A program made the translations under genes and the position numbers. This document shows, piece after piece, positions 20,490 to 55,849 of a DNA stretch of 64,000 nucleotides. The stretch comes from an uncultured virus (IMG/VR IMGVR_UViG_3300037440_000397). Its lineage: Duplodnaviria > Heunggongvirae > Uroviricota > Caudoviricetes. Positions within the stretch are counted from its first letter, which is position 1, and every line of letters begins with the position of its first letter. Under the pieces are notes generated by a model. The model was not told the DNA's origin. It worked only from the letters and a program-made list of their open reading frames with translations, and made no database searches. The stretch lies in the IMG/VR virus record IMGVR_UViG_3300037440_000397, positions 1 to 64,000 of that record; one strand, written 5' to 3'.

Positions 20490-21383
20490 ATGACCACCGA
20501 CGACATGCGCAGACTCCTCGACTCCTGGACCCTCCACCTACGCGCCGAACGCAAAAGCCCACAAACCGTGAAGACGTACACCGACGGCATCAAACGCTTC
20601 ATCGCATGGTGCGAGCGCACCGACCGCCAGCCTGACCTCACACGAGCCGTAGTGAACGCCTTCGTCGCAGACATCCTCGACGACGGCGCAGAGGCTGCCA
20701 CAGCCCGCTCCCGACAGTTGTCCCTCCGCCGGTTCTCCGCATGGCTGGCCGAGGAGGGAGAGCTCGACAGCGACCCGCTGGTGGGCCTGAAGCCGCCCAA
20801 GCTCGATAGCAAAATTATCCCTGAACTATCCGACGACCAGCTCCGCGCGTTGATCAAGGCGTGCGCCGGCAAGGACTTCTGGGAACGCCGCGACGAGGCA
20901 ATCATCCGGCTGATGATCGAGACCGGGGCGAGGATCGGTGAAGTCGTCGCCATGGAAGTGGACGACATCGACCTGCCCGCCGGCACTGTGATCGTGCGCC
21001 GCGGCAAGGGAGGCAAGGGCCGCAGGGTGCCTATCGGGCCGCAGACGTCTCGCGCGGTTGACCGGTATCTGCGGTTGCGGCGGGCTCACAGGCTTTCCGG
21101 GACGCCGGATCTGTGGCTCGGTGACCGGGGTAAGACGATCGGATATTCGGGTCTCTACGACAGTCTGGTGCGGCGTGCGAGGATCGCGGGTGTTGGGGAC
21201 TTCCATCCGCATGTGTTGCGGCATACGGCGGCTGGGAGGTGGCTTCAGCGGGGTGGGTCGGAGGGGGGGTTGATGGCGGTGGCTGGGTGGTCGCGGCGGG
21301 ACATGATTGATCGGTATACGCGGGCGACGGCGGCGAAGCGTGCTGCTGATGAGGCGCGGGGGCTGAATCTGGGTGATCTTTGA
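20490..21383 (+). CDS. int: Tyrosine integrase (297 aa, no obvious arm-binding domain)
   Basis: TGARIGE, RGKGGK, HVLRH, GW, DRY catalytic residues. Confidence 0.95.
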   Translation: MTTDDMRRLLDSWTLHLRAERKSPQTVKTYTDGIKRFIAWCERTDRQPDLTRAVVNAFVADILDDGAEAATARSRQLSLRRFSAWLAEEGELDSDPLVGLKPPKLDSKIIPELSDDQLRALIKACAGKDFWERRDEAIIRLMIETGARIGEVVAMEVDDIDLPAGTVIVRRGKGGKGRRVPIGPQTSRAVDRYLRLRRAHRLSGTPDLWLGDRGKTIGYSGLYDSLVRRARIAGVGDFHPHVLRHTAAGRWLQRGGSEGGLMAVAGWSRRDMIDRYTRATAAKRAADEARGLNLGDL

Positions 21384-44094: not shown

Positions 44095-47000
44095 TCACCT
44101 CCCTCCCGGGTGGACGCGACGCGACAGCATCCGCATCACAATCCGTACCGCATCACGCTCGGTCTGCTCCTGCGAGCGGCCCCACGCAACCGTCGGCCGA
44201 CCAGCCGCCACCAGCGCCTGCGGCTCACCCGACGCGACACGGGCCCGCATCTTCGGCACCGGGAACCCCGGCACATTCACCGCCAGCAACCCCACCAGCC
44301 GAAGCTCCCCGCCGATCCGCCGCCAGTCCCCACTGACCTGGCCCGCGGCCTGAAGCTCGTATACCTTCAACGGATCAGCGCCCGGACGGACCGCGCCCGC
44401 GACCCAGATCCCGTGCGCGTCGTTACCCACCGCGACATCGGCGACCGCAGCACCCGTGTTGTCGTAGTGCTCCGCCGCCGGAGACGCACCCATGTGCAGC
44501 GGCGCATGCCCGGTACCGACGGTGATCTGACCGACCGCCACCCGGGACCCGTCGTCGCACTTCACCTCACCCGTCCGGTAGTACGGGTGCGCGTCTTCGT
44601 GCGGCGGCTGCACACACACACCCTCCTGCCCGATGTGGCAGGAACCCCACTGCGCAGCATGCCCGTAGATCCGGCCGTCGTCCGTGATCGTGATCGGTGT
44701 CGGCAGGCTGAGCTTCGGATCAGAGAACCAGGCGGCTTGCGGTTGCCGTACTGCTGCTGAAGCAGACATGGAGCCGCCCATGCCGTAGTCGCACCCGTCT
44801 TCTTCCGCAGCTGACATCAGGCTGCCAGCGGACACGCCAAGGGCTCGAGCGAAACCCGCCAACCGGTCCTCGGGCGGGCAGTTGATGTCTCCGGCGATGA
44901 TCTCATTGACGGTGCCGGTGCTGATTCCAGCCGCGTTCGCCATGTCGGCGATGATGTCGGCCCGGCTCGTGTCCTCATCCATCTTCCGTTCGATGGCGCG
45001 GTTCAGTGCTCCTGCCAGCGAAGAGCCGAATGCGTGACGAGAGTTTCCAGCGAGAGTTCCGGCCCTCATGTTCAGCTCGGGCGGCTCCCGGTCGGCGTCC
45101 CGCAGATGCCCGGCGAGGTGGTTGTAGACGCCTTGGAAGTCGGCCCGCGGGATCGTCGTGCCGCCGCGGCCACCGTTCAGGATGCCGATCCCCGTAGAGC
45201 AGGCCGTCAGGTTCGCCGCCCCCGGGCTGCCGTCCGCGCCGACCTCGTGATGAATGAACCGGGCGGCATCCTTGACGAGTTCACCGTCTTCGATGCGGTC
45301 GTCATCAATCCACGCGTACGCGTTCCGCGCGGTCGCCACCGTCATCGGCGACGGAAGACGCGCCTCGTTGGCCGGGCCGTCCCAGTCGCCTTCGGAGGTT
45401 GCGGTGTCGTGCGTGCCGACCGCGCCAAACTTCTCTGCCACTGCGGCTTCGCCGACCGGCTGCCCGCCGGCCACCACAGCGCCCTCCTCGTCGAGGAGCG
45501 CGACATAGGCTTCGGCGAACGCGGGGATGTCGACGAGGGTGGCGCCGCGGATGCGGCCGCCGTGGAAAATCATCTTCTCCGGCTGCGCGAACAGCATCTC
45601 GAGCAGGTCGCCCTCGTCGCCGTCTTCCATGCCGGCGTTGACGTCGTCGGGCCACACGAACTCGACGTCGGCGTCCGCGATGGAGTCGGCGTCGATGCTG
45701 ACGCCGCGGAGGAACTCGCCCTTCAACTTGTCGTAGGCCCGTTGTCCGTTGTCGTCGGACAGGTCGAGAACCCCGGCGCCCATGATCTTGTTGTCGTCGC
45801 GCCAGATGCGGTCGATGCGGCCGACGTTGACAGCCTTGGTGCGCGCCTCCCCACCGTGGGAGTCTTCGATGTTCCACCGCAGCGGTATCGGGAGGTCGGC
45901 CCAGGTGAGCGCTCCGGGTGCGAATTCGCGGCCGTCGCCGGTGACGATGCCTTCGACGGCGAGGACGCCTTCCCATGAGGGGGTCTCGCCTGTGTAGCCG
46001 ATCCTGCGGACGTCGTCTTCGTCGTCGCGCTGTGGCCGGTTGCCTTCTTCGGCGAGCAGGGTGCGGGCCTGGTCCTCGGCGTCGGTTTCGGTTGCGTGGC
46101 AGCCCATGAGTTCGTCGGTGGCTTCTTTTACGACGGCCCACGGCGTATCGGCACCGCAGTCCGGGTGGTCTTGCACGATGCTGTACGGCACGCTGCCGCC
46201 TCCTTGCTCGTGGTGTGTCGGCGGCATTGTGTCCGCGGAAGCCGCCAAGATCATTCCGGCGGCTGCTGCCTGCTCGTCTCCCTGCGGCCAGACGGTGACC
46301 AACGTGCCCCTGCAGCGGGAGCCGCCGAGGCAACCCGTGTAGCCGCCCGACGGGTAGGCGGCGCGGGCGTCGGGCAGGGTGGTGTAGCGGGTGCCGTCGA
46401 TGTCGCGACATGGGGAACATGAGTTGCGGTCGAGGATCTCGCTGGCCGTGTACTCGGCAGGCGGTGCGACTGCGAGGACGGCCATGCGGCCCTCGTTCTG
46501 CGCCGCCGACATGGCGGCGCCGACCTGCTCCTCAACTGCCGCACCCGACAGGGACGCGAGGTGCTCATCCACCTGCGCCGCAACCTGCTCCGCCGACCCC
46601 GAACCCCACACCCGCATCGCCTGACGGACCGCGGACTGCACCAGCCCCACACCCAGGTAGCGGGCTGTCGTACGGCCGACTTGGCGGAGCCGGTCCCGGA
46701 TCGCCGCGGCGGTCAGCGCCTCATCGTCGAGGGACCATTCGGGAATGTCGACGCCCTGCGCTTCGGCCTCCGCCTGCTGCTGCTCGCCTGCCTCCCGCGC
46801 GTACGCGATCATGCGGGCGATGAGGAGGCGCGCCCCGTCCTCGGTGTCGACGGTCAGTCCGTCGAGCAGGTCCAAGTTGTCAGCCTCCGCCGCGGCTTGG
46901 ATGCTGGCGGTGATCTCGGCGCGCATCGCCTCCTGCACGCTGGCCCACGCCTCGACCGTGCCGTCTACGGCTTCGTGCCAGGCCTTGTCCATCTGCGTGA

Positions 47001-47811
47001 AGTCAGCGCGGGACGCGAGTTCGAGTTCGGTGGGCTGGCGGCGCAACGGACCGGCCGCCGCGGTTCGAGCGGTGGTTCGTGTGCGGCCGGTGACGCGGAC
47101 GGGGACACCGAGTTCGGCAGCGAGTCCTTCGGCGGCCGTGCACATCGCGTCCAAGAGCAAGGCGCCGCCGCGGTTGGTCTCCACCTCGACATGGACGACG
47201 TCCTCGTCCCACCTCGGGGTGAGGACGCGGGCGGAGGCGGTGACGTCGCCGCCGAGGGGGATGTCAGTGTGCTCCCCGGCGAACGCCACGCGGACGCGGT
47301 CGAAGGTGACCGACCCGAGGCGCTCCTCCAACGCGATGATGAGATCCAGCTCGTCGGAGTACGCGGCACAGATGCGCGGCTGCCAGGGCGTGTACTGGTC
47401 GGGAAGGTTCTCCGCGTCGAGGACGTTCGCCACCGAGTAACGGGCGGCGTCGTAGGCGTTCGCCAGTGCAGGTGCTACGGCCGGGCGGCCGTCGCCGCGA
47501 TCGTCGCCGACGGCCCACACCCACGACGGGGAGTCGCCGTCGGAGTTCCAGTGGTTCGCGCCGAAGATCCGCGCCTCGATGGGCTGCCCGATCCAGTTGG
47601 CGTAGTCGGCGACTTGGTCGATGAGAGCGCGCCGCTCTTCGTCGGTGAACACGCTGCCGTCGTCGCCGAGGAAGTACAGCGTGCAGTGCAGATCCTCGGC
47701 AGCCTCGCCGCCCTCGATCGCCAGCCGCGCCGCGTCCTCCGGCGTGGGCATCAGCGCAATCATCGCGCCAGAGGTGTGCGAGCCGTCAGCGGCGGCCGTG
47801 AGCGAACCCAT
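44095..47811 (-). CDS. Head morphogenesis polyprotein: 2H phosphoesterase-like, MuF-like, capsid maturation protease and HTH insert
   Basis: LHCTL; C..C...D G...CLGG.RCRG; EG..TGDGR, GVSID, TLVDIPAF; AGISTGTVNEII. Confidence 0.8.
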   Translation of the reverse strand: MGSLTAAADGSHTSGAMIALMPTPEDAARLAIEGGEAAEDLHCTLYFLGDDGSVFTDEERRALIDQVADYANWIGQPIEARIFGANHWNSDGDSPSWVWAVGDDRGDGRPAVAPALANAYDAARYSVANVLDAENLPDQYTPWQPRICAAYSDELDLIIALEERLGSVTFDRVRVAFAGEHTDIPLGGDVTASARVLTPRWDEDVVHVEVETNRGGALLLDAMCTAAEGLAAELGVPVRVTGRTRTTARTAAAGPLRRQPTELELASRADFTQMDKAWHEAVDGTVEAWASVQEAMRAEITASIQAAAEADNLDLLDGLTVDTEDGARLLIARMIAYAREAGEQQQAEAEAQGVDIPEWSLDDEALTAAAIRDRLRQVGRTTARYLGVGLVQSAVRQAMRVWGSGSAEQVAAQVDEHLASLSGAAVEEQVGAAMSAAQNEGRMAVLAVAPPAEYTASEILDRNSCSPCRDIDGTRYTTLPDARAAYPSGGYTGCLGGSRCRGTLVTVWPQGDEQAAAAGMILAASADTMPPTHHEQGGGSVPYSIVQDHPDCGADTPWAVVKEATDELMGCHATETDAEDQARTLLAEEGNRPQRDDEDDVRRIGYTGETPSWEGVLAVEGIVTGDGREFAPGALTWADLPIPLRWNIEDSHGGEARTKAVNVGRIDRIWRDDNKIMGAGVLDLSDDNGQRAYDKLKGEFLRGVSIDADSIADADVEFVWPDDVNAGMEDGDEGDLLEMLFAQPEKMIFHGGRIRGATLVDIPAFAEAYVALLDEEGAVVAGGQPVGEAAVAEKFGAVGTHDTATSEGDWDGPANEARLPSPMTVATARNAYAWIDDDRIEDGELVKDAARFIHHEVGADGSPGAANLTACSTGIGILNGGRGGTTIPRADFQGVYNHLAGHLRDADREPPELNMRAGTLAGNSRHAFGSSLAGALNRAIERKMDEDTSRADIIADMANAAGISTGTVNEIIAGDINCPPEDRLAGFARALGVSAGSLMSAAEEDGCDYGMGGSMSASAAVRQPQAAWFSDPKLSLPTPITITDDGRIYGHAAQWGSCHIGQEGVCVQPPHEDAHPYYRTGEVKCDDGSRVAVGQITVGTGHAPLHMGASPAAEHYDNTGAAVADVAVGNDAHGIWVAGAVRPGADPLKVYELQAAGQVSGDWRRIGGELRLVGLLAVNVPGFPVPKMRARVASGEPQALVAAGRPTVAWGRSQEQTERDAVRIVMRMLSRRVHPGGR

Positions 47812-49588
47812 TGGAACTCCGGTGGGAGACGGTGGTCAGAAACCCGGTCGTATCCAGATGCGGGGACAGCCGGCCGATCGTGAGCTGCCCGAACGCAGAC
47901 AGTCGCGCCTCGTACACGCCGGACGTGCCTGGTCTGGGCAGAGTCGGGAGCTTGACCGCGGCGTGTGTGAACGGGCAGGAGTAGGCGTGTGTTGAGCACA
48001 GTGCGGGGTGGAGGAGTTCGGGCGGCCGACCGGCGGCGAATCTGACGGCGTGTAGGGCTTTTGCTTGTTGGGCCATGCGTTCGTCGCGGGCGCGTGCTGC
48101 TTCGGCGCGCGCGGCTTCGGCGGGTGGTGGTTCGCTGGGTGTGTCGGGCGGTGTCCGGTCTTCTGGCTGATCCGTCTCCGGCTCGGTGGTCTGGCCGGGG
48201 CGCGCGGCGGCGACGGGTTGGATGGTGACTTGTTCGCCGGTGAGTTCGGTGATGGCGGATGGGGCTCCGGTGGGGAGGGTGTGGATGACGATCTTGAGGG
48301 CTTGTTCCTTCAGCTCGTCGTCGCTGGGTTTGTCGGCTTCGGTGAAGCCGGTTTCGCGGCGGAGTGCGTCGCCGTTGATTTCGAGGCGGTCGTAGAGCTG
48401 GATGGCGTCTTGGCTGCGGTCGGGGCGGAGGGTGAGTTCGGACATGTCGTACCAGACGACCCAGCTCGCCCAGTCTTCGACGCGGGAGGCTTGAAGCCGG
48501 GGCTGGAGGTAGCCGGTGGTGAGGGCTTGGGCGATGAGTTCGGCGTCGGGGGCGACGTTGACTTTCAGGTTGGTTTCGTCACTCAGCCAGCCGTTCCAAT
48601 GGTTCAAATCGGACATGCCGAGCAGCACTTCGGGTGGGATGTTGAGCTGCGAGGCGAGGCGTTTGATGGCGCTGTCGCGCTTCTCGATGATCTTGTCGTC
48701 GATGCGCAGCGTGAAGTCGAGGTGCTGGAACTTCCCGATCAGTTCTTCCGGCACCTTGATCGGGATTGGCACGATGGCTGCCGCTGTCCCTGGCGTACGG
48801 ATCGCCTCAGCAGCGAGCTCGATCCACTCGGCCACGAACGGGTCCGGCGCGTCAGCGAACTCTTCTCGCACCGGGAAGGTGGCCTCGGACGGAATGAACC
48901 ACACGCCAGCGCTGGCAAGTCGGCTGAGGTACTGGCTGATGATGTGCCGGTTCACCAACTCCAGCTCGCGCATGGTGGTGCGGGCCGCGCGGGCGGGGCT
49001 GTCGGCAACATGGTGGTAGCGCTTGTTGGGGCGCCATACCCGGATGGGGGCCATGGAGTCGGGGGCGAGGGGGCGCCAGTTGTAGCCGTCGCGGGGGTTG
49101 TTTTCGTCGATGACTTCGTAGTGGCCGCGTGCTGCGCGTACTTCGTCGATGGACCGGACAGCCCACTTCTCGATGCCGCCCACGTTTTCGACGATGACGT
49201 AGCCCTCACCGGGGACTGCGAGTTGGGTGCCGAGGCCGTTCATGATTTGGGCTTGTCCGGCGACGCCTCCGGCGAAGGTGGTCATCAGCTCGACGGCGGT
49301 GCCTGCTTCGGCGCGTACGGGTTCGTCGGCTCCGGGTTCGAGTTTCGCGGCGTAGAAGCGGATGCGGGAGAGCATGTTGGCTTCCCAGTCGGCGGCGTAT
49401 CGGAATTCGCCGAGGTCTGAGTAGTACTGCCAGGCTTCGTTTTGCCAGGTGTCGGGGGTGCGGATGAGTTCGGTGCGGGGGCTGGTGGTGGGGGTGGCGG
49501 CGGCCGTGAGCGCGGCGGGTTCTGGGCGTGGCGGGGGTGTGGGTGTGGGCATGACGCCACGGCGGGTGAAGGCGTGATACCAGGCCAT
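47786..49588 (-). CDS. Portal protein
   Basis: WQNEAW...GEFRY, RVWRP, ADSP.RA, SRLASAG, LG...NHW. Confidence 0.85.
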   Translation of the reverse strand: MAWYHAFTRRGVMPTPTPPPRPEPAALTAAATPTTSPRTELIRTPDTWQNEAWQYYSDLGEFRYAADWEANMLSRIRFYAAKLEPGADEPVRAEAGTAVELMTTFAGGVAGQAQIMNGLGTQLAVPGEGYVIVENVGGIEKWAVRSIDEVRAARGHYEVIDENNPRDGYNWRPLAPDSMAPIRVWRPNKRYHHVADSPARAARTTMRELELVNRHIISQYLSRLASAGVWFIPSEATFPVREEFADAPDPFVAEWIELAAEAIRTPGTAAAIVPIPIKVPEELIGKFQHLDFTLRIDDKIIEKRDSAIKRLASQLNIPPEVLLGMSDLNHWNGWLSDETNLKVNVAPDAELIAQALTTGYLQPRLQASRVEDWASWVVWYDMSELTLRPDRSQDAIQLYDRLEINGDALRRETGFTEADKPSDDELKEQALKIVIHTLPTGAPSAITELTGEQVTIQPVAAARPGQTTEPETDQPEDRTPPDTPSEPPPAEAARAEAARARDERMAQQAKALHAVRFAAGRPPELLHPALCSTHAYSCPFTHAAVKLPTLPRPGTSGVYEARLSAFGQLTIGRLSPHLDTTGFLTTVSHRSSNGFAHGRR

Positions 49589-49670
49589 GTGCTGCTCCCG
49601 CGTTCCCTGGGGGTGGGTCTGCGGGTGACGGTAGGCACTAGCCGGGGAAGATCATTCCGGGGTGAATGCG

Positions 49671-49769
49671 GAATTGAATTAAGCGGACCGGTAAAACTAA
49701 TTGCCCTTTACTGGTTCGGGTTAATTAATTGCTGCGGCTTGCGCTTCAGGTCCCTGCATCTCTTACACT
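49671..49769 (+). promoter_or_regulatory. AT-rich divergent region with a likely sigma70 promoter for the RAMP operon
   Basis: TTGCGC (49739) and TACACT (49764), 19-bp spacer. Confidence 0.5.
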
Positions 49770-49828
49770 CACGTCACGGTTCGTGGCGCGGATGGCAGCA
49801 GGCACCCACAATTCACCTGGAGACACCC

Positions 49829-50464
49829 ATGGCTGACGCCACGATTGAGATCCACCAGATCGCCGCCGAGACCCTGCTCGTCCCCCTCGTCGGGACCACG
49901 CCGCTGATCGTTCACCGCTTCAGCGAGAAGGCGAAGCGGCAGATGCTCGACAACATGCAGGGCCGCAAGTCCCCGAAGCAGGCGAAGGACCCGCAGGCGG
50001 AGTACGAGGCCGCGTTCTACCGGCTCGGGGACGGCGGCTACGGCTTCCCCTCGCTGGCCTTCAAGGCGGCCACGGTCGGCGGTGCGCGGTTCTACTCGGG
50101 CGTGACGATGACGGCGCTCAAGCAGTTCATGTACCTGCGTGGCGAGGTCGGTGACGACGGGCGTGCGCTGACCCGTATCGAGGGCGAGCCCATCATGCGG
50201 GAGGACGTCGTCACGGTCGGTCGGAACGGCTCGGACCTGCGGTACCGGCCGCAGTTCTCGGAGTGGCGCGCCACGCTGGAAGTCACCTACGTGACGTCCG
50301 CGTTGACGCGTAACTCGGTGCTTTCCCTGATCGATGCCGGGGGTATGGGCGTCGGAGTCGGCGAGTGGCGCCCGGAGAAGGACGGCGACTTCGGTACGTA
50401 CCGTGTGGATCCGGCTCGTGAGATCGAGGTCGTGACGAGTGCGGGAGAGAAGGTGGCGGCATGA
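49829..50464 (+). CDS. Stand-alone Cas7/RAMP-like protein, 211 aa (Vipr-like)
   Basis: N-terminal strand LVGTTPLIVH, GFPSLAFKAA (RAMP PxxxxKG-like), C-terminal G-rich loop GGMGVGVGEWRPEKDGDFGTY; no other cas genes. Confidence 0.75.
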   Translation: MADATIEIHQIAAETLLVPLVGTTPLIVHRFSEKAKRQMLDNMQGRKSPKQAKDPQAEYEAAFYRLGDGGYGFPSLAFKAATVGGARFYSGVTMTALKQFMYLRGEVGDDGRALTRIEGEPIMREDVVTVGRNGSDLRYRPQFSEWRATLEVTYVTSALTRNSVLSLIDAGGMGVGVGEWRPEKDGDFGTYRVDPAREIEVVTSAGEKVAA

Positions 50465-50886
50465 CAGCGGATCTTCGAGGCCAGTTGCAGGCTGTCTATG
50501 ACCAACACTCGGAGCTGACGCCGGATCTGGTGGTGGACGTGGCGCGCGATCCGGAGCACCCGTTGCACTCGCGGTTCGAGTGGGATGACTCGGTGGCGGG
50601 TGAGGCGTGGCGGCGTCAGCAGGCGCACGACTTGATCCGCAAGGTGAAGGTCGTCTACCGCGAGGCGGATGAGTCGGGTCCGGAGAAGTCCGTCCGCGCT
50701 TTTCATGCCGTGCGGTCCGATAAGGGCCATGTCTATGAGCCGGTGGAGAAGGTCGTCGCTGATGACTTCACTCGTCGGCTTCTGCTGAACGACATGGAGC
50801 GGGAGTGGAAGGCATTGCATCAGCGGTATCAGGAGTTCGAGGAGTTCTTGTCGATGGTGCGGCGGGACGTCAGCGACGCGGCCTGA
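50461..50886 (+). CDS. Accessory protein coupled to the RAMP gene
   Basis: ATGA overlap; LTPDLVV..AR...HPLH..FEWDD motif; array starts 4 nt after the stop. Confidence 0.8.
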   Translation: MTADLRGQLQAVYDQHSELTPDLVVDVARDPEHPLHSRFEWDDSVAGEAWRRQQAHDLIRKVKVVYREADESGPEKSVRAFHAVRSDKGHVYEPVEKVVADDFTRRLLLNDMEREWKALHQRYQEFEEFLSMVRRDVSDAA

Positions 50887-50889
50887 TTC

Positions 50890-51834
50890 GGCAGGCTTGG
50901 CAGGTCTTGGCTGGTCACGTCCCAGTCCGGCATCGCGCGGCTAGGTTCGGCAGGCGAGTCATGGCGTGGCTTGGTGGAGCAACGCGGGTTAAGGCGCGGC
51001 GCGGCATGGCAGGCGGGGTCTGGTTGGGCCCGTCCTGGTGAGGCGAGTCGAGGCGCGGCAGGCTTGGCCCGGCACGGTCCGGCGGGGAAGGCATCGCTAG
51101 GCAGGGCCGGGCTTGGCAGGCTCGGCATGGCTAGTAGTGGCCCGTTCGGTCTTGGTAGGGCTCGGCGTGGATCGGCACGGCAGGCTCGGTGCGGCGGGGC
51201 TTGTCTCGGCGGAGTCTGGCATCGCTTGGTGAGGCAGGGCTCGGCAGGCTCGGCGCGGCTGGTCCTGGCCGGGCTTGGGTCGGCAAGACTTGTCTCGGCT
51301 TGGCAGGGCAGGCGTGGTCCGGCACGTCGTGGCACGTCGGAGTGCGGTGCGTTTGGGTAGGGCTCGGCAGGCTCGGCGGGGTCAGGCAGTGCTGGTTGTG
51401 GCTAGTCACGGCTTGGCAACGCGTGGAATGGCAGGCTCGGCAGCGCAGGGCGCGGCACGGCAGAGCGAGGCGCCACGTGGCATGGCACGGCAGGCCAGGC
51501 ATCGCAGGGCACGGTCGGGCAGGGCCGATCGCGGCATGGTTGGGCTCGGCAGTCATGGTGTGGATAGGCGAGGCATCGCCAGGCACGGCACGGCAGGCGC
51601 GGCAGGCGCGGCCAGGTCGGGCGCGGCATGGTCGGCAGGGCAGGCGGGGCATCGCGGGGTCCGGCGTGGCTTAGCAGGGCCCGGCCAGGCGTGGTCAGGC
51701 GTGGCAGGCACGGCACGGCAACGCAAGGCGTGGCTCGTCCTGGCCCGGCGGGGCAACGCAGGGCAGGCGTGGCTGGTTCTGGTGCGGCGTGTCTGGGCGC
51801 AGTGCGGCGGGGCGCGGACTGGCATGGCAGGCGA
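50890..51834 (+). repeat. Non-coding GGCA-(GGY-NN)n array, 17 units, candidate guide-RNA array
   Basis: GGCA delimiters at 50890, 50949, 51008, 51057, 51115, 51179, 51243, 51307, 51366, 51430, 51489, 51548, 51592, 51601, 51639, 51703, 51762, 51826; mostly 11-12 pentamers per unit. Confidence 0.92.
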
Positions 51835-51843
51835 GAGAACACC

Positions 51844-51881
51844 GAGGGCCGTTCGCGTGACGCACACCGCGAACGGCCCTC
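51844..51881. terminator. 14-bp perfect hairpin closing the array
   Basis: GAGGGCCGTTCGCG / CGCGAACGGCCCTC. Confidence 0.8.
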
Positions 51882-51919
51882 AACCTCACCCATCCCTGCA
51901 AGCCAGATGCTACGGGCTG

Positions 51920-52387
51920 CTACGCCCACTCCTGTCCGGCGAGCAACGCGCCCACGGCCCACGTCGCCAACCACACCAGCACCGGCATCGCCAAACCCGC
52001 CACCGCCCACACCCCGCCCGTCACCACAAGCGCGATCCAACCGCTCGCACACCAAGGACACGACAGCAACTCGGCCAACCAGAACGGCGACCACCTGCGC
52101 CGGTGCACGTAACGCTCCAGCACGCCGTCGTTTTCCTGTACGGAACCGAGGGCCGCGTACGCACGCCGCACCCCCAAGGGCATCTCCTGCTCACCCTCAG
52201 GACGACCCAACGGCGACCAACCCTCGTAGGCGTAGTACGCCCCACGCTCAGGCTCCGTCAGCGCCCGCCAGCCACCCGTCAGCCGGTCACGCAGCCACAG
52301 CACCGGCGGAAACGTATCCGCCACCAGCAACCGCGTAAGCCGGTACACCGCGAGCGACATCACGAGCAGCAGCAGCCAAGTCTCCAT
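51920..52387 (-). CDS. DUF1360-like membrane protein
   Basis: YRLTRLLVAD...LLSCPWCASGW. Confidence 0.8.
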   Translation of the reverse strand: METWLLLLVMSLAVYRLTRLLVADTFPPVLWLRDRLTGGWRALTEPERGAYYAYEGWSPLGRPEGEQEMPLGVRRAYAALGSVQENDGVLERYVHRRRWSPFWLAELLSCPWCASGWIALVVTGGVWAVAGLAMPVLVWLATWAVGALLAGQEWA

Positions 52388-52644
52388 CACAGAGCCGCAG
52401 GAGTCGTCTCACCCTGGAGCGACTTATACACCGACACCGTGTACGAGGTACCGCTGTTGTACGAGGACTTGAACGACACGAGCGCGCTATCCAGGTACGT
52501 CAGCAGCTCCTCCATCTCCGCCTCGTTCTCGCCGTTGATGATGGCGCCCTCGATGGAAAGCTTCGCTCCTCCCGTACTGCTGATCAGGTAGTGGACGGTC
52601 AGCGGGTTGTAACCGCTAGTCGGAAACGCCACGAGAACTCCCAT
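52387..52644 (-). CDS. Hypothetical protein
   Basis: TGATG coupling to the next gene. Confidence 0.55.
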   Translation of the reverse strand: MGVLVAFPTSGYNPLTVHYLISSTGGAKLSIEGAIINGENEAEMEELLTYLDSALVSFKSSYNSGTSYTVSVYKSLQGETTPAAL

Positions 52645-53293
52645 TGATCCAGAACTGCTTTTGATGATTCGTCGGCACCCTCGTGTCCACATGCACAGGA
52701 ACCCCCGCGCCCATCAGGCGCCAGCAGAACGACAGGTCCTCACCCACCAGCGTCCCCGTACCGTCGACGATCGGATCAAACCACGCCCCGGCATCGACGC
52801 GTTCCAGCGCCGAACGGTGCACCAGCAGACACGCCGCCCCCGTACCCGCCACACGCACCAGCCCCGAAGGAACTGGCCTCTCCCACTCCGTGAACACCTT
52901 CGCGTCATCCACCCACCCGTGCAGCGTCGGAAACACCCGCGTCGTCAAGCCGCCCATGCCGTCCGGCTCTTCCTCCACCACCCCGTAGCAGAGGGCGCCT
53001 ACCACCGGCCGCTCCACGGGGTCAGCCGACGCGAGCAGACACGACAGAGCATCCGGCCGGAACCCCATGTCCGTGTCCACAAACCACAGCCACTCCCCGC
53101 CCCCAGCGAGGAACTCAGCCACGGCCTGGTTACGGACATGGGCAATCCCGATGGGCCGGTACCGCACCGGCATGACCCCGGAGATGACAGGCTCTTCAGC
53201 CCGCCGGTCGTGGCTCATGGCGAGGAGCAGCGACTGCATGAACGTGTGGGAGACCCAACCGGGATGGACGTAGCTGACGACGACTCCGCTCAT
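52616..53293 (-). CDS. GT-A fold glycosyltransferase
   Basis: RN..V..FL, FVDTD, GAACLL, GEDLSFC. Confidence 0.8.
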   Translation of the reverse strand: MSGVVVSYVHPGWVSHTFMQSLLLAMSHDRRAEEPVISGVMPVRYRPIGIAHVRNQAVAEFLAGGGEWLWFVDTDMGFRPDALSCLLASADPVERPVVGALCYGVVEEEPDGMGGLTTRVFPTLHGWVDDAKVFTEWERPVPSGLVRVAGTGAACLLVHRSALERVDAGAWFDPIVDGTGTLVGEDLSFCWRLMGAGVPVHVDTRVPTNHQKQFWINGSSRGVSD

Positions 53294-53298
53294 GCTGG

Positions 53299-55698
53299 TC
53301 ACCGTACGCGCCCGCCAACAATCTGCTTTCTGGCCAGATCGCCACCCAACGAACCCTGACCACGCGACGCCGTCCCCACCAACTTCAGATGCCACGCGGT
53401 CCACACGCAGTTGTGCACGAGGATTCCGTTCGCATAGAACTCGTGCTCACCCTCGATCGTCAGGTCGTACACGGGCTGCCTTGTTTCGAGCGCGGAGATG
53501 CGCTCCACACGAGTTCGAGCACGTCGCCGGAACCGGCTGATACTTGCTCTGCATGAACTCCCCTCCGCAGATCGGGCAGTTCGCCGGCTTGCGATACCGG
53601 TCAGCGCGGTCAGCAACACGACGCATGCACGCAGGAGAGCAGTACCGCGACTCCTTGAAGCCGCGCGTCTCGTAAGGCCTGTCACATGCTTGGCAGACCT
53701 CCGTGCGGTACTCCTGCTTGGCGTAGACATCCTTGCCGTGCTGTCGATGCCACTCGCGTCCCTCATCGCTGCTGTGCCACTCGGCAGCCATGGGGCGAAT
53801 GCTCGCCAGGTGCTCCAGCCATTCCGGGCTATCGAGGTCCCGTTCGTGTTCGTGGAGCAGGGCGTGCTCCTTGCGGGTGACGCACCGGAGGTTGCTGGAC
53901 TCGTTGTTGAGCGGGTTGAAGTCCACGTGGTGGATGACATGGCCGCGAGGAACTTCGTCAGCGCCGTTCGCAGCCTTCCAGACCTCGACGTGGAGCTGAC
54001 CCATCCTGGGTATGCGCCGGCTGTTCGCGTAGGCAGTGAAGTAGACCCTCGACGAGCGACTCTTCGACAGAGGGAAACGAGTGAACGTGATGCCGTTGAA
54101 AACGACCGACTCAGTCTGTTTGGGCATACGTCAATTCTATCGCCCCAGACCATCTCATCCACTCGAATGAACCCATTTTGTTCGGTCCATACCTTGTGAT
54201 CTGGAGTGGCCGTGAACGCCCCGGCCGTCGTCACGACACGCATCACCTCAGCGCTCGGACGCGTCATGCCAGACCACGTCACACGGCGCCACCCGGCCCG
54301 CGTCCACGCCAAGTCGTCCGTCGTCACCTCCTCAATCGGGATCTGCCCGCGACGGGTAGTGACCAGAGTCCCGGCAACAAGGCACGCGTCCAATCGGTCC
54401 GGTGACCAGCCCGCTTCCGGGTACCAGGTCGCCATCTGGTCCTCCAGCTTCGGGAACTCGCCGGCGTGGTGCCACCTGTTCTGTGCAGTGAGCGCCGCCA
54501 CGGGCTCCGCTCGCACCGCCTTGCCCCTGGTCGCGGTGACCGTGCGGATCGGAATGTCCACGCCGAGCGCGTCGGCCGCCGTGCGCAGCGTCGCGACGGC
54601 CATGTCCCCTCCAAAATTTCGCTCTACGACCAAGTCGTCTGCTTCCCAGTCGATCGCGGCCTGCACCGCGCGCCGGCCCCATCCGTCGGGCGACAACTGG
54701 CAGGACCGGTCGTCGAGGACGTAGCCGTGATGCTGCGGCCGGCCGCCATCCCCAGGAAGTACGAGGCCGGACTTCCCGACCACGACGATGCCCTGCTCCC
54801 CGGCGCCGCCGGACGGGTCGACGCCGACGGTGATTCGTACGAGGTCGGGTACGTCGCCGGGCCGTACGCGCGCTTCGTCGATCATCGTGTGTTGCCAGAG
54901 CGCGTTCTCGTCTTCTTCGATCAGCTCGCCGTACAGTTCCTGACGGCCGAGCTGCGTGCCCGCATACCGTTCCTCGAGGGAGGCTTTGATGTCCTCGGAG
55001 ATGTGCGGGTTGTCGCGGTAACTGGCGTGCGTCAGCATGACGTTCGCGACCGCTCCGGAGTGCAACTGCTTGATGAGCGGCTTCGGCTTCGGCGTGGTCG
55101 AGGCGACCCAGTGCGGGCGCGGGCCGACACGGAGGCCGAACCGCATGTGGTCCCAGGCGTCGTCGAGGTGCCGCCACGCCGCCAACTCCTCCAGCCACGC
55201 GAGGCATCGGTTACCGCCGGACCGTAGGCGGTCGACGTCGTTGGGTCCTTCCGTGCCGAAGATCTTCGCCTCGGATCCGTTGGGCCAGCGGACGATGGTG
55301 CTGCCCTTGACGGTGGCGAGCTTCGCTTCTGGGCTGTGGACGCTCAGCCCGGATGGCCCGGAGAAGCAGGAGGTGACGGCGTCGCCTTGGGTGGGGCCGA
55401 TGATGGCGATCCAGTGCGGGATCGGGCCGGGTAGGCAGGGCGGTCCGTGGACGTGCTGGTGGACGTACGCGGCACACGCGTCCGTCTTGCCCGCCATCCT
55501 GCCGGCGAGCAACAGCCACCCGTAGAAGTCGCCGGGCGGCGGCACCTGGTGGGGAAGCGGAGTCCACCTGGGTTTCGTCAGCGCGTCGTAGAGGCTGCCC
55601 ACGTCCGCAGCCGATCGGATAGCGGCCTCCGCGAATTCGGCGCGCGTGTTCCCCCGCTCCTGCTGGAGTGGGAAGAAGCTTTCCCAGTCGACGCCCAT
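53299..55698 (-). CDS. terL: Terminase large subunit with intein
   Basis: AGRMAGKT, WLEE, VGVDP, SPDRLDA interrupted by an intein. Confidence 0.9.
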   Translation of the reverse strand: MGVDWESFFPLQQERGNTRAEFAEAAIRSAADVGSLYDALTKPRWTPLPHQVPPPGDFYGWLLLAGRMAGKTDACAAYVHQHVHGPPCLPGPIPHWIAIIGPTQGDAVTSCFSGPSGLSVHSPEAKLATVKGSTIVRWPNGSEAKIFGTEGPNDVDRLRSGGNRCLAWLEELAAWRHLDDAWDHMRFGLRVGPRPHWVASTTPKPKPLIKQLHSGAVANVMLTHASYRDNPHISEDIKASLEERYAGTQLGRQELYGELIEEDENALWQHTMIDEARVRPGDVPDLVRITVGVDPSGGAGEQGIVVVGKSGLVLPGDGGRPQHHGYVLDDRSCQLSPDGWGRRAVQAAIDWEADDLVVERNFGGDMAVATLRTAADALGVDIPIRTVTATRGKAVRAEPVAALTAQNRWHHAGEFPKLEDQMATWYPEAGWSPDRLDACLVAGTLVTTRRGQIPIEEVTTDDLAWTRAGWRRVTWSGMTRPSAEVMRVVTTAGAFTATPDHKVWTEQNGFIRVDEMVWGDRIDVCPNRLSRSFSTASRSLVSLCRRVARRGSTSLPTRTAGAYPGWVSSTSRSGRLRTALTKFLAAMSSTTWTSTRSTTSPATSGASPARSTPCSTNTNGTSIARNGWSTWRAFAPWLPSGTAAMRDASGIDSTARMSTPSRSTARRSAKHVTGLTRRAASRSRGTALLRACVVLLTALTGIASRRTARSAEGSSCRASISRFRRRARTRVERISALETRQPVYDLTIEGEHEFYANGILVHNCVWTAWHLKLVGTASRGQGSLGGDLARKQIVGGRVR
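53410..54384 (-). mobile_element. Intein, 325 aa
   Basis: CLVAGTLV...TPDH...VYDLTIEGEHEFYANGILVHN, +1 residue Cys. Confidence 0.92.
53447..54127 (-). CDS. HNH endonuclease in an alternative frame within the intein
   Basis: LHVEVW...IHHVDFNPLNNESSNL...EHALLH plus two zinc fingers. Confidence 0.85.
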   Translation of the reverse strand: MPKQTESVVFNGITFTRFPLSKSRSSRVYFTAYANSRRIPRMGQLHVEVWKAANGADEVPRGHVIHHVDFNPLNNESSNLRCVTRKEHALLHEHERDLDSPEWLEHLASIRPMAAEWHSSDEGREWHRQHGKDVYAKQEYRTEVCQACDRPYETRGFKESRYCSPACMRRVADRADRYRKPANCPICGGEFMQSKYQPVPATCSNSCGAHLRARNKAARVRPDDRG

Positions 55699-55849
55699 GG
55701 TCGGATTGTGGCTGCTGTTCGAGGGTGTGCTGTCCGGAGCGGGGGTTGGTTGTTGTCTCGTACGCTGGCCGTGCGCCAGGGCCTCATGTCCCTCATTGAC
55801 CCGTGGGCGCCCCCGGGAAGAAGCGCAAAGGGGCGCCACTCAGCGGCGG

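Follow-up and report, generated by a model that had tools for sequence, protein, structure and literature searches.

A probable VIPR system of an actinophage, with a predicted guide against the catalytic-tyrosine motif of an integrase not its own

What is the role of a long, G-rich tract of five-nucleotide repeats lying next to two small genes in the genome of an uncultured virus, and does one of its units, as was originally predicted from the letters alone, spell out a motif of an integrase that is not the virus's own? The stretch of DNA analyzed here (hereafter, the window) comprises bases 1–64000 of the IMG/VR record IMGVR_UViG_3300037440_000397, a virus record of 78,573 bp with direct terminal repeats. 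Judging from its gene content (WhiB, RecT, a tyrosine integrase, portal, capsid and tape-measure proteins, mostly encoded on the minus strand), the source virus is an actinophage, and WhiB together with the closest homologues points to Actinomycetota as the host phylum. We conclude, with a probability of roughly 0.87, that the plus-strand cassette at positions 49829–51881 is a VIPR (Viral Interference Programmable Repeat) system, an assignment made by the published description of such systems, and that unit 9 of its array is a guide directed against a foreign integrase. The kind of system is already known, and the decoding of unit 9 holds.

VIPR was described in 2026 as a CRISPR-related DNA silencer (bioRxiv 10.64898/2026.04.26.720920). 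According to the available part of that preprint, Vipr is a small (~20 kDa) ancestral RAMP, mostly virus-encoded, and its guides, the vrRNAs, consist of 9–16 YNNGG (GGY/NN) repeats that obey a ‘1-nt skip rule’: the NN bases pair with double-stranded DNA (dsDNA), every third base, usually the codon wobble base, being skipped. Natural targets, called at an NN match of at least 80%, lie on both strands, without self-targeting. The same source reports seven types with accessory vap genes and 667 representative loci; a minimal locus, mostly viral, associates vipr and vap with long non-coding arrays at the flanks, Vap being a predicted DNA-interacting protein of the winged-helix, helix-turn-helix (HTH), HNH or helicase class. 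The legend of its fig. S18 defines ‘staggered’ arrays, in which successive vrRNAs overlap by 1 nt, and the part of its text available to us describes no natural targets for them (10.64898/2026.04.26.720920). From two further preprints, likewise available in part, come the structure of the Vipr filament and triplex (10.64898/2026.04.26.720927) and an account of a satellite conflict, in which the VIPR of SUSP1 silences the excision recombinase of a satellite, decoy (solo) vrRNAs are reported for satellites, and the F5 satellite recombinase resembles the P2 DNA invertase and a PICI-like (phage-inducible chromosomal island) integrase (10.64898/2026.10.15.759431).

The cassette was assigned to VIPR because it displays the following sequence-level features of the published definition: (i) a small protein (211 aa) of RAMP/Cas7 fold; (ii) a GGY/NN pentamer array divided into guide-sized units, with a staggered, 5n+4 architecture; (iii) a two-gene locus accompanied by an array, in a virus record and in 21 of 21 related loci; (iv) in silico, a reading with a 1-nt skip in which the wobble base is skipped, in codon phase 0, with NN matches of at least 80% in integrase open reading frames (ORFs); and (v) no self-targeting at that same threshold. 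The evidence consists of the anatomy of the array, the fold of the neighboring protein, the conservation of the three-part cassette and target matches obtained in silico with their controls.

The array, which is ~950 nt long, G-rich and non-coding, lies directly 3′ of the second gene of the cassette. Its autocorrelation reaches 0.50 at lag 5, versus 0.22–0.32 at lags 1–4, and across the whole 78,573-bp genome the period-5 signal exceeds three standard deviations only at ~50851–51900. Segmentation yields 198 units, 172 of five nucleotides and 26 of four, with cores that include GGC (124), GGT (24), GTC (18) and CGC (11), GGC or GGT accounting for 148 of them; the NN positions are near-uniform in composition. 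The four-nucleotide units are almost all GGCA and recur at a 5n+4 spacing. More specifically, 18 GGCA steps delimit 17 higher-order units of 9–64 nt (59, 59, 49, 58, 64, 64, 64, 59, 64, 59, 59, 44, 9, 38, 64, 59 and 64 nt, in order), 15 of which contain 8–12 pentamers; 15 of the 17 lengths fit 5n+4, and the long-lag autocorrelation peaks at 59 and 64. By analogy with the published staggered arrays, we infer that the GGCA steps are the sequence appearance of a 1-nt overlap between adjacent guides, and that cleavage would take place there.

An independent parse returned the NN list first proposed for unit 9 (TC GG CA AG TG GT TA AC TT AA GT AT), with the same boundaries and the same unit number; in strict 5-nt register after the GGCA step, the unit reads GGCtc GGCgg GGTca GGCag TGCtg GTTgt GGCta GTCac GGCtt GGCaa CGCgt GGAat. 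The reverse complement with one skipped base per pair, AT.AC.TT.AA.GT.TA.AC.CA.CT.TG.CC.GA, was recomputed and found to be correct; it decodes to (I/M)T(L/F)(N/K)VYT(H/Q)L(W/C)P(D/E), which had been proposed to be the box II motif, with the catalytic tyrosine, of a tyrosine integrase. In all, 823 actinobacterial genomes were sampled: 401 from the class of the Thermoactinospora rubra genome and 301 from its order were searched for this pattern, and 121 from the family of a genome referred to as G033 for that of unit 7, a near match for a 24-position guide being defined as at most three mismatches (at least 21/24) and the pattern read backwards serving as the control. Unit 9 has near matches in five of the 401 and five of the 301 genomes, versus none in either set for the reversed pattern. 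All ten score 21–22/24 (88–92%), lie in codon phase 0 and fall on a single motif, [MIT]TL[ND][VI]Y[AST]HL[WF]PD, the individual sites reading MTLNVYAHLWPD, ITLNVYAHLWPD, MTLNVYSHLFPD (four times), MTLNIYTHLWPD, ITLDIYTHLWPD and TTLNIYAHLWPD (twice). Nine of them are located in PF00589 ORFs, just 3′ of the HxLRH...LGH signature, and the tenth in a short remnant ORF. From what is generally known of the family, we take the tyrosine of this motif to be the catalytic tyrosine of tyrosine recombinases; the Pfam PF00589 alignments of the target ORFs end at profile positions 168–169 of 172, which fits this assignment. Across the ten sites, conservation is 90% at the read positions and 73% at the skipped positions. 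The proposed integrase motif is supported by nine PF00589 ORFs out of ten matches, and the proposed pattern search over genomes succeeded in part: it failed for exact matches and succeeded for near ones. Note that the five genomes with the closest Vipr homologues contain no unit 9 match at up to three mismatches.

The target is also non-self, as had been claimed. The integrase of the phage (C-terminus RRDMIDRYTRATAA) does read MIDRYTRATA, and unit 9, when aligned on its catalytic tyrosine, matches it at only 10 of 24 positions; anywhere in this gene, the best score of units 5, 7 or 9 is 13–15/24. In the whole phage genome no guide reaches 80%, the best ratios being 0.64–0.78, and in each case at least 17 of 200 shuffled guides do equally well.

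Two sister guides point in the same direction. In a first scan, the 15 guides with at least eight pentamers were compared with 200 kb surrounding the first five unit 9 matches; besides unit 9, only unit 7 stood out, with 21/24 in the G033 integrase (none of 200 shuffles as good), and this match falls in the same gene as a unit 9 match. In that integrase unit 5 scores 17/24, 16 nt beyond the unit 7 site, and units 5, 7 and 9 are all complementary to its coding strand, each in codon phase 0. Within the G033 family, the unit 7 pattern has near matches in 3 of 121 genomes, versus none for the control, and reaches 22/24, in phase 0, in the integrases of two genomes, G712 (where the site reads CKENFEKRSQAD) and G735. 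Unit 5, which had not been selected for, matches the G712 integrase at 24/24 (VETDLNRGTYID), in phase 0 and 16 nt downstream of the unit 7 site, with none of 300 shuffles as good; its exact pattern is absent from the viral contigs searched. The G735 integrase scores 19, 17 and 22 of 24 with units 9, 5 and 7, respectively. In G712, the integrase gene occupies one edge of a small island, which further includes an HTH_17 (excisionase-type) gene, a DUF6907 gene and a gene for an IstB-like ATPase; housekeeping genes adjoin the island. A marginal match was also noted for unit 15, 18/24 at G735:C2:617946, ~0.9 kb downstream of the targeted integrase gene (one of 200 shuffled guides scored as high).

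These matches bear on the recognition code itself. Skips of 0, 2 and 3 bases, which had been put forward as controls, were tried on the 200 kb along with a skip of 1, and high scores were obtained only at skip 1; for unit 7, the scores are 16/21/16/15 for skips 0/1/2/3, the control being unbiased only for units 5 and 7. The gapped, wobble-skipping 2-of-3 recognition, which the original prediction offered as an inference of its own, was in fact already in print in 2026: it is the published 1-nt skip rule (10.64898/2026.04.26.720920), and the 24/24 and 22/24 matches of units 5 and 7 in phase 0 agree with it.

Neither of the two proteins of the cassette has a significant Pfam family. The AlphaFold2 model of the vipr-like protein has a predicted local distance difference test score (pLDDT) of 83.4 and a predicted template-modelling score of 0.79, and when the PDB was searched with this model by Foldseek, there were 44 matches with E ≤ 1e-3; the top one has E = 1.4e-5 and a template-modelling (TM) score of 0.53. 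Because the matches listed are chains of CRISPR effector complexes (type III Csm/Cmr, Cmr6, type VII, type I-A and Cas7-11 (III-E)), the vipr-like protein, as modeled, is a Cas7-like RAMP. The accessory protein displays an invariant LHSRFEWDD..A...R..QA motif in an alignment of 19 sequences, and its AlphaFold2 model (pLDDT 92) shows an N-terminal domain that may be winged-helix-like, followed by a long C-terminal helix; Foldseek found no match to it at E ≤ 1e-3. The genome with the closest vipr-like protein is that of T. rubra (84% identity). Homologues of the vipr-like protein (28–84% identity) occur in 72 genome loci (L023–L094) from many phyla, including Actinomycetota, Alphaproteobacteria, Planctomycetota, Cyanobacteria and Spirochaetota, many of them in metagenome-assembled genomes. 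Both cassette proteins also have homologues in the Gordonia phages ODay, Ecliptus, UmaThurman and Pipp (MW534375, OP820472, KU963251/NC_031249 and MN234179, respectively) and in ~27 Mycobacterium phage records; in these cultured actinophages, the vipr-like proteins are 52–64% identical and the accessory proteins ~30–50% identical to those of the window, and all are annotated ‘hypothetical protein’.

The three parts of the cassette travel together. Searching IMG/VR with the accessory protein retrieved 21 related loci (31–71% identity, GC content 0.50–0.70), and in all 21 the vipr-like and accessory genes adjoin and are accompanied, on the same strand, by a GGC period-5 array; the autocorrelation of the relatives' arrays peaks at lags of 5k+4. 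The array is mostly downstream of the genes, with a few variations: it lies upstream of vipr in loci L010/L011 (2681–3341) and L020 (3021–3331), and L006 (2461–2931 and 3541–4051) and L007 (2661–2911 and 3561–4011) each have an array upstream of vipr and a second one that separates vipr from the accessory gene. In L002, whose Vipr is 97% identical, some higher-order units are near-identical to those of the window (L002 5014–5057 versus window 51548–51591), but most of the other units differ between the two arrays; therefore, the guide content turns over unit by unit.

Several results weigh against unit 9 being a guide for an integrase, or against reading the cassette as a whole in this way. 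The exact unit 9 pattern is absent from 185,579 species genomes, from 2.9 million viral contigs and from a metagenome collection; a variant admitting either leucine codon family is absent from the metagenome and viral contigs, and a sub-pattern of nine dinucleotides from the viral contigs. The best match is 22/24, with no perfect target in the collections searched, and the skip-size control for unit 9 (15/22/16/15 for skips 0/1/2/3 on the 200 kb) is biased, as the regions had been chosen by the skip-1 matches of that very unit. In the G712 integrase (C-terminus FTLRTYAHMMPT), unit 9 scores only 13/24. The other 12 of the 15 guides do not rise above shuffles in the phage genome, in the 200 kb that surround five integrases, in ten loci of 3 kb each or in 78 kb of sequence next to the G712 and G735 integrases. 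Among the relatives, a scan of 16 loci (20 array segments, 398 ten-unit windows with at least 7 of 10 perfect GGY cores) against six integrase genes gave no match at 17/20 or better. As to the accessory protein, VIA-align finds that residues 1–99 resemble winged-helix domains with middling Z scores of 5.5–6.3, in the range of common arrangements. One could hold that the array is a genuine VIPR array and that the true target of unit 9 is not an integrase, the likeness being incidental or the guide old and decayed: no collection searched contains a 23–24/24 match, all ten matches carry two or three mismatches, and the integrase that unit 5 matches perfectly does not match unit 9. We consider this improbable, given the ten matches versus none for the reversed pattern, all in phase 0 on one motif and nine of them in PF00589 ORFs, and given the two sister guides that also read integrase motifs; moreover, 21–22/24 is above the threshold of at least 80% stated in the VIPR preprint (10.64898/2026.04.26.720920). 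The G712 integrase suits units 5 and 7 best but scores only 13/24 with unit 9, which may therefore be directed at another integrase family than the two sister guides.

The strand of the targets raises another question, namely whether the guides act on DNA at all. All three guides with targets are complementary to the coding strand, hence to the mRNA, and decoy vrRNAs have been reported for satellites in the accessible part of one preprint (10.64898/2026.10.15.759431), as would suit guides that work as antisense RNAs against integrase mRNA or as decoys soaking up the Vipr of another element, instead of silencing DNA. Three targets out of three on one strand carry little weight, however (p = 0.25 that all fall on the same strand, whichever it is), the published targets lie on both strands and dsDNA is bound (10.64898/2026.04.26.720920), and this array, in contrast to solo vrRNAs, is accompanied by vipr and vap genes; we regard action on RNA or as decoys as very unlikely. 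Finally, the decoding itself could be a coincidence, the array being a simple repeat born of slippage or a TRAP-like protein-binding RNA without information in its NN positions. The reading was indeed made after the fact, with many units, both strands and many decodings open to try, and the NN dinucleotides are near-uniform in composition, but the zero score of the reversed controls against ten matches, the presence of unit 5 (24/24, reached without selection) and unit 7 (22/24) 16 nt apart in one integrase, the Cas7 fold of the neighboring gene product and the conservation of the cassette in 21 of 21 loci leave this explanation effectively refuted.

A VIPR system aimed at foreign integrases remains our preferred reading, and the way in which it would work can be outlined by transposing from the preprints the transcription and processing of the array, the formation of the ribonucleoprotein, DNA binding, silencing and the biological outcome. 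The array would be transcribed and cut into ~17 vrRNAs at the 1-nt-overlapping GGCA/GGC junctions. Vipr protomers, as Cas7-like RAMPs, would polymerize along each vrRNA, each gripping one GGY triplet and presenting the next two bases; the presented dinucleotides would then pair with dsDNA, every third target base being skipped, and binding would silence transcription. In this scheme, the 12 dinucleotides of unit 9 would be complementary to codon positions 1 and 2 of (I/M)TLNVYTHLWPD, around the catalytic tyrosine of a non-self integrase, and units 5 and 7 would be directed at a pair of neighboring motifs in the N-terminal part of tyrosine integrases carried by small integrated elements of actinomycete chromosomes. 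By analogy with the published systems, the probable purpose is to shut off the integrase of a rival that resides in the host (a satellite, an element resembling actinomycete integrative and conjugative elements (AICEs), or a prophage), thereby blocking its excision or spread. As the wobble base is skipped and functionally invariant codons are read, escape by synonymous mutation would therefore be ineffective.

A broader proposal, to which we give about even odds, is that the staggered array constitutes a multi-guide program against tyrosine integrases as a family, with at least 3 of the 15 usable guides directed at functionally invariant motifs: KENF.KR.QA near the N-terminus, D-L-x-R-G-T-Y-I-D next to it and the catalytic-tyrosine box. 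If this holds, the phage could immobilize whole families of resident satellites or AICE-like elements, and since the codons read are ones that the enzyme has to keep, an element could not escape by synonymous mutations or by most non-synonymous ones. The locus would then be an actinobacterial, tyrosine-recombinase counterpart of the SUSP1–F5 satellite conflict and would provide the first natural targets for a staggered array. More generally, the VIPR code, worked out in Escherichia coli and Pseudomonas systems, appears also to explain a long, tail-less staggered array in an actinophage, where protein motifs can be read straight from the guides; three guides point at tyrosine integrases, one of them at the catalytic tyrosine. 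The locus offers a concrete and testable case in Actinomycetota of a phage opposing the recombinase of a competitor, and the homologous proteins of cultured Gordonia and Mycobacterium phages make it tractable for experiments.

Comparison with known systems helps to place the cassette. It shares with the staggered VIPR arrays a small RAMP encoded beside an accessory gene, a long GGY/NN tract, a 1-nt overlap of the guides, a phage location and the one-base-skip reading. With type II VIPR (Escherichia phage SUSP1 and a Pseudomonas fulva prophage), it would have in common a Vipr–vrRNA filament (predicted here), a wobble-aligned 1-nt skip and, as target, the recombinase of a rival integrated element, of which near-invariant codon positions are read; self-targeting is absent from both. 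The differences from type II are threefold: (i) SUSP1 has four separate vrRNAs of ~100 nt with a structured 3′ tail, whereas ~17 abutting guides without a tail are predicted here; (ii) the host is Pseudomonadota in type II and, in all likelihood, Actinomycetota here; (iii) the guides here would be directed at a tyrosine recombinase (PF00589), three motifs of which are read, that of the catalytic tyrosine among them, and the F5 recombinase is reported to be P2-invertase/PICI-integrase-like. A tblastn search with the vipr-like protein against 50,697 phage records gave no Escherichia phage among the matches listed. Like the Cas7 backbone of type III and type VII effectors (Csm3, Cmr4/Cmr6, Cas7-11), the vipr-like protein has a RAMP/RRM fold (E down to 1.4e-5, TM ~0.5) and is expected to polymerize along a guide RNA at a fixed nucleotide period; in the Cas7 effectors, however, the period is 6 nt with one base flipped, whereas here it would be 5 nt with three sequestered, the target being read discontinuously. 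The 5-nt array is the only one revealed by scans for tandem repeats and periodicity, with no CRISPR repeat–spacer array, and no other cas-like family was found among the 68 ORFs scanned against PHROGs. The cassette was not classified as a class 1, type III-like CRISPR-Cas system: it comes without a repeat–spacer array and without a multi-gene effector (Cas10, Cas5, Cas11).

Other candidates for the array were discarded along the way. A coding pentapeptide repeat is ruled out, as a 5-nt period with 4-nt slips holds no reading frame. The trp leader RNA bound by TRAP contains 11 G/UAG triplets, 2–3 nt apart. The array resembles it in having triplets at a ~5-nt spacing in blocks of ~11–12, but the protein encoded next to it folds like Cas7 and not like TRAP, and its spacer bases contain information on the target. 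Also dropped, once the Cas7 fold of the neighboring protein and the informative NN positions had been recognized, were a protein-sponge RNA of the TRAP or CsrA type, a minus-strand Rho rut tract and a pac/TerS site close to the terminase gene.

The features of the cassette and the integrase of the phage are listed in Table 1.

Table 1. Positions of the cassette, its parts and the phage integrase in the window
Feature	Positions	Strand	Evidence
Whole cassette (two genes, array, hairpin)	49829–51881	+	Gene scan, repeat parse, RNA fold
vipr-like gene, 211 aa, phrog_4652, predicted Cas7/RAMP fold	49829..50464	+	PHROG match at 5e-40
vap-like accessory gene, 141 aa, phrog_15946	50461..50886	+	PHROG match
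Predicted staggered vrRNA array, ~198 GGY-NN units (mostly GGC), 17 higher-order units	50890..51835	+	Segmentation
Unit 5, candidate guide for an integrase motif (VETDLNRGTYID)	51115..51178	+	24/24 in G712 integrase
Unit 7, candidate guide for the N-terminal integrase motif [CRQ]KENF[EDA]KR[SG]QAD	51243..51306	+	21–22/24 in integrases
Unit 9, candidate guide of 12 NN pairs, catalytic-tyrosine motif	51366..51429	+	Parse, decoding, 10 genomic matches
GC-rich hairpin at the end of the cassette, between the array and a convergent minus-strand gene (51920–52390)	51844..51881	+	RNA fold
Tyrosine integrase of the phage (context, not a target)	20490..21383	+	PF00589 at 5e-25

The plus strand carries the vipr-like and accessory genes, which are thus opposite in orientation to the portal and terminase genes on the minus strand. 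The RNA fold of 51826–51900 has an energy of −39.8 kcal/mol (z = −6.9; none of 200 shuffles equally stable), and the hairpin that it contains is likely a terminator; a consensus terminator scan made no call at this hairpin, because it has no T run. A sigma-70 promoter scan of 49000–53500 gave no site. No match was returned for 50400–52400 by megablast against the 50,697 phage records, or for 50000–52500 by Rfam (E-value mode).

Three features of neighboring genes were noted in passing. The large-terminase ORF (53299–55839, minus strand) contains an intein-like stretch, which in the translation extends from DACLVAGTLV to ILVHNC. An ORF for an HNH endonuclease (phrog_15471; 53447–54127, minus strand) is nested in this terminase ORF, in a different frame. 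Beside the portal gene, a 1238-aa ORF (44095–47811, minus strand) combines PHROG matches to a portal or MuF-like protein, a head-maturation protease and an RNA ligase, an unusual fusion.

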